NCBI GenBank assembly: GCA_048882505.1
Contig: JBHLRO010000001.1
Span: forward strand, 420,001 to 452,000
Origin: Candidatus Thorarchaeota archaeon
GTDB taxonomy: Archaea; Asgardarchaeota; Heimdallarchaeia; Hodarchaeales; Hodarchaeaceae
DNA: 32,000 nt
Direction: 5' to 3'
The position numbers and the translations under genes were made by a program. Below, piece after piece: positions 18,298 to 21,366 of the stretch (its first letter is position 1; every line of letters starts with the position of its first letter). The notes beneath the pieces were generated by a model. It did not search any database, had not been told where the DNA came from, and worked only from the letters and a program-made list of their open reading frames with translations.

Positions 18298-21200
18298 ATG
18301 GTCGCTCCAGACTTTTTTCTCGGCAGAATAGGAAACGAACAATTTAAACTACCGAGTACTACCTTCTTGACTCATGCCGCCATTCTGGGCGCTTCGGGAA
18401 GTGGTAAAACGGTTGTTTGTAAGTCGATTGTTGAGGAAGCTATTCGTGCTGATATACCCGTAATTGCGATTGATCCTAAGGGGGACATTGGTGCGTTAGG
18501 AATTGGTTTGGGTGAATTTGACAAAGATACTCTGATTATTCACGCTCAAGTTGAAGCTGAAGATCGCGGTCATGGGGATCCAGAGGAGATAGCAGAAGAA
18601 TGGATTCAGTTATATCAAAACAAACTAGAAGACTCTTTTGGCCCAGAATATCTTAGTGTAGAAAAAGAGTTTTCTAACAAGGTTGCCGTTGTTCTTATCA
18701 CCCCAAAGAATGCCGCGGGGGTGCAAATATCTCTTACTCCCAGTTTTGAAATGCCTACCAATTATGAAGAGCTGATGACTGAATCTCCTGATGCACTACT
18801 TAGCTCTCTTGATCTTAAAATTCAATTGCTCCTTTCTCGATGTGGTATCGGTACTACCTCTTCTACTGATAATCGCGTAATCTTTTTGAGCAATATTATC
18901 AGACATATCTGGGAAGTCGAAAAGAAAAAAGCGGTAACGCTTGAAAACCTCATAGAAGCCATTGAAGATCCACCCTTTGAAAAAGTCGGCTCGTTAGCAG
19001 TAGAAAAATTCATTTCTAAAGTAAAACGTACCGATTTGGCGCGCAAAATCAATGCTTTGATGGTTAGAGCAGTTCCAGGAGTAGATCTGAACTTTGACAA
19101 GTTCATTGCACTCGCGAAGAAACAGAAACGGACTCCGATAATTGTATTCGATTTAAGAAAGATTACGGATTCCGATGAAAAAAGTACCTTTGTTGCTGAA
19201 ATTCTTGGTGAGGTACAGCGGTGGGTATGGTCTAAAGGAGGAACCAGTCGCCTTCGCGCAATTTTGTATTTCGATGAGCTATATGGTTTCATGCCCGCGG
19301 GTTCATTAAGTCCTCCTTCTAAAACTGCCCTGTTAATAATTCTTAAGCAGGCTCGAGCGGCTGGGCTTGGTTGTGTGCTGGCTACACAAAATCCTGGTGA
19401 TTTAGATTATCGGGGATTGTCAAATATCGCAACTTGGATACTGGGAAGGCTAGCCACAAACCAAGATGTTGCGAAAGTCCAAGGAGCTTTGAAACCAGTT
19501 TTTGAAGGTGCCGGAGGATCCGAGGAAGACTTTCGTAAATTGATGAGTCAAATTCGGGCATTAAAACCGGGCAATTTCATAGCATACAATCCACGATATG
19601 GAGTGAACGAGCTCAAAACCAGATGGCTGTTGAGTTTACACAAGGGCCCCTTAACAGATTCTGAAATAGAGGCCTTAACGCTTCGTCCCCCGAAACCAGA
19701 GCCAAAGAAAGGAAGAAAGAAAGAAAAGATCGACACTGAGGTAGAAGAGAAGGTTCCATCCAAGCACGAATTTACCAAAAAGAAACCAAGTGTTGGGAAA
19801 ATTACGGAGCGCTTCCTAATCCCGAAAATATCTCAAATGAATGTACCAATCACTGTTTACGAAAGATTAAGTATACAGGGAAATCCAGAAGTGGATGGAT
19901 TTGATATAGAGTTTGACGAACAAACCCAGTATTATGCTCCTTTATACTTTTCCAAAACTCTGATCAATATTAAACGCGAGGTAAAAGAGGGGTCTATTAT
20001 CTTTCCTGTTGAGATCACAGAAACTATGTCTCGTTCATTTGATTTAAGCACGAAAATAAAGTGGGATCAAACCACTGTTGAAGGCATTCACGCTTCTTCG
20101 CTACCTCCGGAAGATCTAACCCTTAGTCCAAACGATGATTTCGTTTTCCATACTCTTGATAAGGAAATCATAACAAAATTGCCTGATAATCTCGTATGGT
20201 ATTTTACGCAATCCCCATTTCCCGAAGCGGGGAACATTTACCAAAAAAAGTTGCGTGAGTTTGAAGTAACCGAATTAGAGAAATTAGCGGGGAAAAAGGA
20301 ATCTAAAGCGTTTTCTAAGATTTCTAAAGACATGAGTAAAATTGAAGAAAGGATAGAAACCGAAAACCAACGTCTTGACGAAACCCTTGCAAGAATTGAA
20401 GTACTTCAAGCCGAGAAAAAAGCGCGCTCCGCAGAAGGTAGATCAATTAAGGCCGTACTAAGATCTTTGGAGACCGCTGATGCTAAAATCCTTCGTCACG
20501 AGGAAAGGAAGAAAGAGCTACAAAATCAGCTTAGAGCATTAGAAAACAAGCGAGAAGAAATGATTAAGGAACAAAAAACCGAATACGCAAAATTGCATCA
20601 AGGAATCGAAAATCTAAAGAAAAAGGGGGCCCCAATGGATTTGTATCGGCCTGGAAAAGCGGATATTAAAATTGAAGAAAAAGCCGTGTATTGGATCCCA
20701 AGGTTATTAATTCCTATTTCATTCACTATTCCTGCATCCGAAAATGATAATGGGGGAATCGTAGTACGTTCTGAAATTGACTTAAATCTCTATAATGGGA
20801 ATGCAGAGCTGTATTGTGATGGCTGCGGGCCCGAAATTAGTACCGAAAATTATTATCAGACAATATTGGCTTCAGAGATAAGTCCCCCAACTTTTATCTG
20901 TACAACTTGTCTTAACACATATTGCAGTGAGCATATTTCATTCTGCGAGGAGTGTGGCAAAATTTCGTGTTTAGATCATGACTATGACTGTCTCATTTGC
21001 AAGAAAAAGCTTTGTGGCACTTGCAGGGTCTTAGACACCAGACACGCGGAAATCGTCTGTAAAGAGCATTCTTGGCAATGCATCGTTTGCCAGGGAGTAT
21101 TTAGCTCGAATTATGAGTTTAAAAACACCAAAGAAGAACCAGTGTGCGAAGATTGTGCCCCGTCCTATCTATTAGAATGTCAGGAATGCGGGAAATTCAA

Positions 21201-21366
21201 CACTAAGGACAATTCGGCCATTTGTGAAGGTTGTAGTAAATCATACTGTGCCGAACACCTCCAGCAGTGCCGTAAATGCAAAACAAACGTTTGTAATGAC
21301 TGCGGGCGAGTAAGAGTTAAGTTGAAGGGGGAAGAAGTTATCGCCCAATGTATCGTATGCTCTTAA
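18298..21366 (+). CDS. HerA/FtsK-superfamily ATPase (DUF87/DUF853-like) with coiled coil and C-terminal Cys/His zinc-finger array
   Basis: THAAILGASGSGKT, IDPKGD, LYFDE, KQARAAGLGCVLATQNPGDLD. Coiled coil at about aa 670-775; repeated CxxC-x3-CxxH units at the C-terminus. Confidence 0.85.
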   Translation: MVAPDFFLGRIGNEQFKLPSTTFLTHAAILGASGSGKTVVCKSIVEEAIRADIPVIAIDPKGDIGALGIGLGEFDKDTLIIHAQVEAEDRGHGDPEEIAEEWIQLYQNKLEDSFGPEYLSVEKEFSNKVAVVLITPKNAAGVQISLTPSFEMPTNYEELMTESPDALLSSLDLKIQLLLSRCGIGTTSSTDNRVIFLSNIIRHIWEVEKKKAVTLENLIEAIEDPPFEKVGSLAVEKFISKVKRTDLARKINALMVRAVPGVDLNFDKFIALAKKQKRTPIIVFDLRKITDSDEKSTFVAEILGEVQRWVWSKGGTSRLRAILYFDELYGFMPAGSLSPPSKTALLIILKQARAAGLGCVLATQNPGDLDYRGLSNIATWILGRLATNQDVAKVQGALKPVFEGAGGSEEDFRKLMSQIRALKPGNFIAYNPRYGVNELKTRWLLSLHKGPLTDSEIEALTLRPPKPEPKKGRKKEKIDTEVEEKVPSKHEFTKKKPSVGKITERFLIPKISQMNVPITVYERLSIQGNPEVDGFDIEFDEQTQYYAPLYFSKTLINIKREVKEGSIIFPVEITETMSRSFDLSTKIKWDQTTVEGIHASSLPPEDLTLSPNDDFVFHTLDKEIITKLPDNLVWYFTQSPFPEAGNIYQKKLREFEVTELEKLAGKKESKAFSKISKDMSKIEERIETENQRLDETLARIEVLQAEKKARSAEGRSIKAVLRSLETADAKILRHEERKKELQNQLRALENKREEMIKEQKTEYAKLHQGIENLKKKGAPMDLYRPGKADIKIEEKAVYWIPRLLIPISFTIPASENDNGGIVVRSEIDLNLYNGNAELYCDGCGPEISTENYYQTILASEISPPTFICTTCLNTYCSEHISFCEECGKISCLDHDYDCLICKKKLCGTCRVLDTRHAEIVCKEHSWQCIVCQGVFSSNYEFKNTKEEPVCEDCAPSYLLECQECGKFNTKDNSAICEGCSKSYCAEHLQQCRKCKTNVCNDCGRVRVKLKGEEVIAQCIVCS

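Follow-up and report, generated by a model that had tools for sequence, protein, structure and literature searches.

A window of 32,000 nucleotides from Candidatus Thorarchaeota archaeon (assembly GCA_048882505.1, contig JBHLRO010000001.1, positions 420,001 to 452,000) carries, at 18298-21366 (+), the gene of a HerA-type ATPase of 1022 amino acids (aa) with a coiled-coil arm and a zinc-repeat tail. The locus raises the question of what such a motor does in the cell, and whether it belongs to the ligase-hydrolase-vWA unit encoded next door. Among known organisms, Asgard archaea are most closely related to eukaryotes. Motors of the HerA/FtsK type have been studied in depth for DNA repair, chromosome segregation, conjugation and, recently, phage defence; to our knowledge, no described motor of this type carries such an arm, and a literature search found no description of a family combining HerA, a coiled coil and a zinc array. 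The analysis placed the ATPase in a previously undescribed archaeal family within the HerA/FtsK superfamily. We give a probability of about one half to the reading that it is a housekeeping ring motor with a protein-docking zinc arm, which would be switched by a GTPase in this archaeon and would stand outside the ligase unit. Learning what the zinc-armed ATPase moves would close a gap in our knowledge of archaeal cells.

The ATPase head and its C-terminal arm

The gene is a single unbroken reading frame of 1022 codons by open reading frame (ORF) call and translation, with homologues and an AlphaFold model in agreement, and the reading frame and anatomy described for it in the original prediction were correct. 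The full-length AlphaFold model had a mean predicted local distance difference test score (pLDDT) of 83 and showed, in order, a P-loop head, a linker, a beta domain split by a coiled-coil hairpin, and the zinc tail. Pfam recognized the N-terminal part of the protein alone. The protein contains 31 cysteines, 28 of which lie within the final 187 residues. Conservation was read from an alignment of 33 homologues with 31-68% identity to the ATPase.

The P-loop head of the HerA/FtsK superfamily comprises aa 1-465 (18298-19692, +), as determined by Pfam, Foldseek and structure comparison with VIA. The Pfam DUF87/HerA central domain matched aa 24-305 (E = 9e-9). The Walker A motif GASGSGKT (aa 31-38; 18388-18411, +) has the invariant residues G31, A32, G34, G36, K37 and T38, the Walker B strand ILYFDE (aa 322-327; 19261-19278, +) has the invariant residues F325, D326 and E327, and the TQNPGD stretch is invariant as well. 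VIA superposed the head on Sulfolobus HerA (4d2i) with a Z score of 27.5 and a root-mean-square deviation (rmsd) of 3.8 Å over 318 residues; the Z scores for DndH-C, VirB4, TrwB and FtsK were 26.1, 24.6, 20.1 and 16.9, respectively. Foldseek matched the head to HerA, DndH-C and SIR2-HerA at E values of about 1e-11 (HerA, 1.6e-11). The motor domain placed at the N-terminus by the original prediction was thus borne out, and in its predicted model the head is a HerA/FtsK-superfamily P-loop ATPase with all catalytic motifs and a HerA-like fold. A ring-forming translocase, as had been proposed, is a fair inference from the intact, invariant motifs; the protein was modelled as a monomer.

By sequence, the nearest relatives of the head were YjgR/DUF853 (PF05872; PDB 11kk) and the 'AAA-like domain proteins' of Planctomycetota and Verrucomicrobiota, which are about 800-950 aa long. 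The YjgR match spans just about 60 residues of the ATPase: Pfam HerA_C (PF05872) matched aa 15-77 with 25.3 bits against a cut-off of 22 bits, limited to model positions 12-73 of 502, and PDB 11kk matched aa 1-67 only, at the Walker A region.

The best structural matches were the HerAs of HerA-NurA complexes, which would suit a canonical DNA end-resection HerA acting with NurA, Mre11 and Rad50. The ATPase shares with HerA (Sulfolobus solfataricus 4d2i; HerA-NurA 9x1m and 7f6d) the ASCE P-loop fold, the Walker A and B motifs and the TQ sensor motif. However, the sequence identity of the head to HerA was only 15-19%, and HerA has no C-terminal arm of about 550 aa. The N-terminal HAS barrel was not found in the ATPase: the model has just two short strands before the Walker A motif, which begins at aa 31, and the VIA alignment to 4d2i opens at HerA chain residue 117, so the barrel is missing. 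In addition, the neighbours scanned on both sides of the gene gave no Pfam match to NurA, Mre11 or Rad50, and seven other DUF87-type ATPases in the genome could fill such a role. We consider an end-resection HerA extremely improbable.

The head is followed by a flexible Lys/Glu/Pro-rich linker (aa 466-492; 19693-19773, +), in which pLDDT falls below 50 at aa 468-488. This linker had been described as basic, and with a charge of +2 it is mildly so in this protein, but the charge is not conserved; many homologues have an acidic linker, and its length varies too. A basic DNA-binding linker was considered and rejected, because the linker charge is not kept among homologues.

The beta-rich domain is encoded in two halves. 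The first (aa 493-643; 19774-20226, +) forms long beta-hairpins, with model strands at aa 543-564 and 567-582, and the second (aa 777-835; 20626-20802, +) leads back from the coiled coil, with model strands at aa 790-811 and 821-830; overall, the model has beta strands at aa 503-618 and 790-830. A search of aa 492-646 against PDB sequence profiles gave no match. In the second half, W799, P801, R802, N830, L831 and N833 show little or no variation. Inserted between the two halves in the model is an antiparallel coiled-coil hairpin of about 130 aa and roughly 10 nm (aa 644-776; 20227-20625, +), made of helices at aa 644-713 and 718-776, which bears out the coiled coil proposed originally. The tip of the hairpin lies at about aa 713-718 in the model and carries a G-x-S-T-K-like motif that is conserved in the Asgard and TACK consensus sequences. 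Structure comparison of the hairpin with VIA returned generic helical hairpins only, and Pfam gave nothing above threshold on the beta domain, the coiled coil or the tail.

The zinc array occupies aa 840-1021 (20815-21360, +), as determined from the sequence, the alignment, the model and a profile search. It contains 16 knuckles, 12 of the CxxC and four of the CxxH type, and the repeat unit is C-x2-C-x4-C-x2-H-x3, 15 residues long; the recurring spacing is therefore CxxC-x4-CxxH followed by x3, and not the CxxC-x3-CxxH noted previously. As 16 Cys/His columns are invariant, the Cys/His pattern is far beyond chance. A separate AlphaFold model of aa 826-1022 had a pLDDT of 81. In most homologues the knuckles number 16 or 12; length variants lose four at once, that is, two zinc ions, which fits binuclear modules, four of them here, with up to eight zinc ions predicted. 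The net charge of the tail among homologues is acidic in most (median -4), which favours protein docking over nucleic-acid binding. The array is real and conserved, and the substrate-recognition role originally proposed for it is plausible.

We analyzed the fold of the tail by structure and profile comparison. Foldseek gave no match for the tail model at E ≤ 0.001, and its best rows were tandem LIM domains (E = 0.04, rmsd > 10 Å); the x4 and x3 spacings of the tail knuckles are much shorter than those of LIM, which has hairpins of 16-23 residues. The terminal binuclear module (aa 957-1022; 21166-21363, +) is FYVE-like by VIA and sequence-profile matches. VIA superposed the final 65 residues on 17 FYVE and Rab-effector fingers with Z scores of 3.8-5.5 and rmsd values of 2.6-3.5 Å over 50-55 residues. 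The matched fingers include those of Vps27 (1vfy), EEA1 (1joc), ALFY (6w9n), Slac2-a (2zet), rabphilin (1zbd) and RIM (2cjs), and also Slp and Rubicon-type fingers. Sequence profiles matched the FYVE domain of ALFY (E = 3e-3 and 7e-4), and Pfam FYVE_2 reached only E = 5.6 on the tail. The middle modules superposed on PHD fingers with Z scores of about 3-3.5. The cysteine spacing of the terminal module, taken from C976 onward and without the extra C984/H987 knuckle, is C-x2-C-x11-C-x2-C-x4-C-x2-C-x15-C-x2-C, which fits FYVE. However, this module ends a continuous array rather than standing alone, and the Z scores are below the level that proves common descent. The PI3P (phosphatidylinositol 3-phosphate)-binding motifs WxxD, (R/K)(R/K)HHCR and RVC were not found in its sequence: the corresponding stretches read AEHLQQCRKC and IAQCIVC, and the family consensus has no RRHH. 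Because these motifs are absent, the terminal module has a FYVE-like fold at most.

A likeness to TRIM proteins had also been noted, with B-box-like fingers and no RING. TRIM proteins do combine zinc modules with an antiparallel coiled coil, but the ATPase has no RING, its domain order is reversed, with the coiled coil preceding the zinc modules, and the arm is fused to a P-loop motor. No RING was found in Pfam scans of the protein or the tail at E values up to 10, in agreement with the original prediction. The only B-box match was the ANCHR-like PF22586, which is below threshold (E = 0.05, 14 bits against a cut-off of 27 bits), the highest-ranking rows of three fold searches of the tail contained neither a B-box nor a RING structure, and the folds matched were FYVE, PHD and LIM. 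The TRIM/B-box likeness was not supported.

Two variants of the tail were observed. One Asgard lineage (family f11 and metagenomes; L043:14362-15006, L053, L055 and L058) has a helical domain of about 100 aa in place of the distal half of the array; this domain had a sub-threshold winged-helix match (HTH_27, E = 0.001) and recalls the FtsK gamma winged helix. The other, a 1087-aa homologue (L063:331-3594), has a longer zinc array and a C-terminal hydrophobic, transmembrane-like helix, and a gene for a vWA/S-layer-domain protein lies about 1 kb downstream of it.

Distribution of the ATPase and its arm

Full-length homologues (31-68% identity, 960-1080 aa) were found in Asgard metagenome-assembled genomes only, under the labels Hodarchaeales, Heimdall, Odin, Thor, Hermod and Loki/Promethearchaeota. 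In a survey of 400 genomes of the phylum, the full-length form was present in 19 of the 21 genomes of the window's genus. Beyond the genus it was scattered, occurring in families f11, f18 and f19 and, with weaker matches, in f4 and f14; none of the 135 genomes of the largest family sampled had it at E ≤ 1e-20. One Asgard genome of family f14 (G116) has a bacterial-type version of 845 aa with no zinc array (L044:11893-14430). This copy grouped with bacterial sequences in the ATPase phylogeny, which was a quick tree, and the grouping suggests gene transfer or a binning error.

Proteins homologous from the C-terminal lobe of the ATPase to the array, and likewise about 1000 aa long, occur in TACK archaea (P0137; Verstraetearchaeota MCC6042640.1; Methanosuratincola). 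The alignment of Asgard sequences matched P0137 in hhalign with a probability of 100 and an E value of 4e-47 over aa 283-1023. The TACK proteins have a coiled coil and a zinc array, and differ in having an N-terminal HAS barrel, a canonical HerA-like head with NCBIfam HerA matches, and no GTPase gene of the kind described below nearby in the homologues examined. They are annotated as DUF87, as hypothetical, or wrongly as prefoldin or YukE. This form was found in Methanomethylicia, Nezhaarchaeales, Bathyarchaeia and Culexarchaeia; in one TACK class it is single-copy in 47 of 62 genomes, which range from 0.5 to 2.8 Mb in size, and its neighbours on the chromosome are housekeeping genes (homocitrate-synthase-like, TrmI, PNP and Alba).

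The bacterial 'AAA-like domain proteins' show 33-37% identity to the ATPase over aa 5-460, and the full-length hidden Markov model (HMM) matched them to about position 809, through the coiled coil. However, they have no zinc array, with 0-1 cysteines in the last 200 aa, and are themselves uncharacterised. Scored region by region, the Asgard head HMM gave 330 bits against bacterial relatives versus 33 against TACK proteins; the middle region gave 55 bits against TACK proteins versus 17 against bacterial relatives; and the zinc tail gave 110 bits against TACK proteins versus 0 against bacterial relatives. With these mosaic scores, the arm behaves as a module joined to different heads. Judged by sequence comparison, it is self-contained: it is joined to a head without HAS in Asgard archaea, to a head with HAS in TACK archaea and to non-ATPase N-termini in bacteria.

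The head also matched defence models, which raises the possibility of an anti-virus ATPase of the SIR2-HerA, DUF4297-HerA or MADS mad8 kind, in which the zinc arm would be a sensor or an effector scaffold. The best PADLOC model was mad8 (E = 3.3e-17; head aa 25-387, model positions 28-255 of 314), a partial match confined to the head, and there were weak matches to defence HerA models. Related bacterial ATPases of 657 aa (L092:1-13800, L085, L087 and about 15 more metagenome loci) are encoded last but one in a conserved BREX/MADS-like operon, which consists of BrxC/PglY-like, type I S-subunit/mad5-like, PglZ, methylase/mad2-like, ATPase (mad8-like) and DUF262-type genes. A SAVED-domain gene also lies 10 kb from the ATPase in the window. 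However, mad8 has no arm, and neither the window nor the Asgard and TACK loci examined contained a methylase, PglZ or BrxC-type gene. No nuclease, Sir2, methylase or other effector gene was adjacent in any lineage examined. The gene is stable within the genus and, in small TACK genomes, it is near-core and single-copy amid housekeeping genes, and the G+C content of the window, about 40%, is even along its whole length. A defence role is decidedly unlikely, given the near-core distribution and the lack of an adjacent effector gene. A viral collection contained a single weak, head-only match, which speaks against a viral origin. This scarcity in viruses, the single copy amid housekeeping genes in the TACK class and the presence in most genomes of the genus favour a housekeeping character.

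GTPase and ligase genes beside the ATPase

The gene head-to-head with the ATPase encodes a divergent TRAFAC GTPase (17504-18124, -), which was recognized by a weak Pfam GTP_EFTU match, its G motifs and synteny. It has a G1 motif GxxxxGKT, a G4 motif NKxD and an unusual G3 motif, GTGGH, instead of DxxG(Q/H). Its best PDB profile matches were EngA and HflX (E about 1e-4), not Rab or Arf. The intergenic region extends over 18125-18297, and the 173 nt previously given for it are right for the longest GTPase ORF. However, orthologues in the alignment begin at an internal M/L-VNIGILG, and translation probably starts at an internal Met, at 18082, so that the region probably reaches to 18083 and measures about 215 nt.

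The GTPase was the sole neighbour that recurred with the ATPase beyond the genus. In genome G133 (L045) and in a metagenome contig (L054) it lies immediately upstream of the ATPase and in the same direction, and in genome G129 it lies at one contig end while the ATPase starts another contig. In the quick tree, the GTPase-linked ATPases formed two clades, with Thor, Heimdall-LC3, Odin and Hermod branches between them. Of these intervening branches, the contexts examined cover one locus of the Thor type (L049), which has no GTPase. A C-terminal tail, SAF[DN]VW, was present in 73 of 75 Hodarchaeales-type GTPase orthologues. The distant ATPase-linked GTPases end in DPFSNW and DPFKIW (two copies), and two unlinked GTPase copies end before the tail motif. 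In this small sample, the aromatic-acidic tail suggests a docking hypothesis for the GTPase, and the GTPase with its conserved tail and the ATPase would make a simple, testable switch-and-motor pair.

Pairing of the ATPase gene with a GTPase gene, in an Asgard archaeon, could also point to an effector of a membrane or trafficking-like process, similar to Rab effectors or tethers, in which the ATPase would remodel a membrane-bound assembly. The terminal module superposes on the FYVE, Slp, rabphilin, RIM and Rubicon-type fingers named above and is matched to ALFY by profile, and the homologue L063 ends in the transmembrane helix already described. However, the Z scores reach only about 5, the PI3P-binding motifs are absent, the GTPase is closest to the EngA/HflX type of TRAFAC GTPases, and most family members, including all those of TACK archaea, have no such GTPase nearby. 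This alternative appears very unlikely.

Beyond the GTPase, the block at 10796-17482 (-) encodes, by Pfam and genus synteny, a 303-aa protein, a 482-aa protein, a 979-aa GCS2 ligase and a Cdc48N-vWA protein. The head-to-head order of the ATPase and the GTPase-303-aa-482-aa-ligase-Cdc48N-vWA genes was kept in every sufficiently long genus locus examined, despite protein identities of 64-68%, and in four metagenome contigs too, and three genus genomes without the ATPase also had no GTPase and no ligase. The GNAT gene of the neighbourhood is not conserved within the genus. Proteins with vWA and Cdc48-N domains usually have an AAA+ partner. The vWA protein here has a Cdc48-N-like domain, yet Pfam found no AAA+ ATPase in the cluster, and the ATPase could replace such a partner as the motor of a ligase-hydrolase-vWA system that unfolds, extracts or presents the protein target of the ligase.

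However, in the contexts examined outside the genus, no homologue with this architecture had the cluster beside it, and of the five cluster proteins, which were searched for by HMM, only the GTPase was detected adjacent to distant homologues. In G133 the ligase is on other contigs than the ATPase, in G007 the ligase is absent, and in some genomes genes are inserted between the two sides. Co-occurrence of homologues with the GTPase/ligase cluster had been set beforehand as the test of a shared system, and outside the genus the GTPase alone recurred. Of the proposal that the ATPase is part of the adjacent system, the synteny within the genus stood and the association beyond it did not. From this family-wide context pattern, we infer that the ATPase is not integral to the ligase-hydrolase-vWA unit, and a role as its motor is unlikely.

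The preferred reading is that of a housekeeping motor outside the ligase unit. In this proposed mechanism, the ATPase would form a hexameric ring with six arms, each tipped by four binuclear zinc modules arranged as a rod. The arms would dock partner proteins rather than nucleic acid, since the zinc tail is acidic and FYVE/PHD/LIM-like. In the window's genus and two other Asgard lineages, the adjacent GTPase would act as a switch or loader, and it would probably dock through its conserved aromatic-acidic C-terminal tail. The job of the family would be a housekeeping one, most plausibly the moving or remodelling of DNA or of a nucleoprotein complex; DNA or nucleoprotein is a plausible substrate because the nearest structural relatives of the head are HerA, DndH, VirB4/TrwB and FtsK.

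Several points weigh against this proposal. The hexamer, the substrate and the binding of the GTPase are proposals, and the FYVE-like match of the terminal module is weak (Z about 5), with the PI3P-binding motifs absent. The acidic tail makes direct binding of the arm to DNA less likely, and the winged helix of the f11 lineage is sub-threshold (E = 0.001). The GTPase occurs without the ATPase in three genomes. Genomes of the genus have either all or none of the 12-kb block, and a local functional link with the ligase genes is possible. Neighbours vary by lineage and no universal partner is visible: the lineage-specific neighbours include a 285-aa protein, a tandem winged helix-turn-helix protein, an AAA_33 kinase-like protein and a 972-aa protein, and the 285-aa proteins encoded upstream in two lineages are related neither to each other nor to the 303-aa protein of the window. 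A fuller version of the housekeeping proposal, an unrecognised TACK/Asgard machine with six zinc-rod arms of about 10 nm, an FtsK/SpoIIIE-like chromosome or nucleoprotein job, GTPase control in Hodarchaeales and relatives, and a new docking repeat, is unlikely to hold in every part.

Two further observations were made on the gene neighbourhood. In three genus loci (L040:7846-9997, L046:7816-9959 and L038:7871-8896), an insertion of one or two genes, coding for about 342 and 346 aa, separates the ATPase from the GTPase and breaks the shared divergent promoter region in those genomes. In family f4 (L131:4151-4744 and L132:7156-7716), a distant branch of the ATPase family (about 1005 aa) has, directly downstream and in the same orientation, a gene for an AAA_33/KTI12/zeta-toxin-like P-loop kinase.

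The zinc repeat outside the ATPase family

The profile of the tail was searched against 1.84 billion representatives, which completed the C-terminal profile search suggested in the original prediction. It matched 429 proteins at E ≤ 1e-3, of which 113 reached E ≤ 1e-10. Many of these have long arrays with a strict 15-residue period and up to about 20 units. Among 141 newly listed matches, 131 have no ATPase and ten have a HerA-type head, and 55 ATPase-less proteins also fit the Asgard profile from about position 520-790 on, that is, over the coiled coil, the beta hairpin and the array. Nine of the strongest matches were scanned against Pfam without any match, and none of the eight scanned against NCBIfam matched a model covering the repeat. 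Clusters of repeat proteins are hypothetical in the Atlas and mostly bacterial (Gemmatimonadota and Chloroflexota). The 15-residue zinc-repeat proteins thus look like an unannotated family. The profile is directly useful for the annotation of hundreds of prokaryotic proteins, and the repeat, if this holds true, would be a new and widespread protein-docking module missing from domain databases. The repeat proteins P0121, P0123, P0125-P0131, P0134 and about 120 more are 300-1700 aa long and often have a coiled coil before the array.

A decayed copy of the final approximately 90 codons of the ATPase gene, 83% identical, was found at L002:1501-1767 (-), which corresponds to contig C3:157595-157861 of genome G000. 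An in-frame TGA replaces a Cys-Gly of a knuckle and there is no upstream reading frame, so this fragment is a pseudogene. The same genome has open reading frames for eight DUF87-type ATPases, 337-1032 aa in length, which is a large set of HerA-type proteins for a single archaeon.

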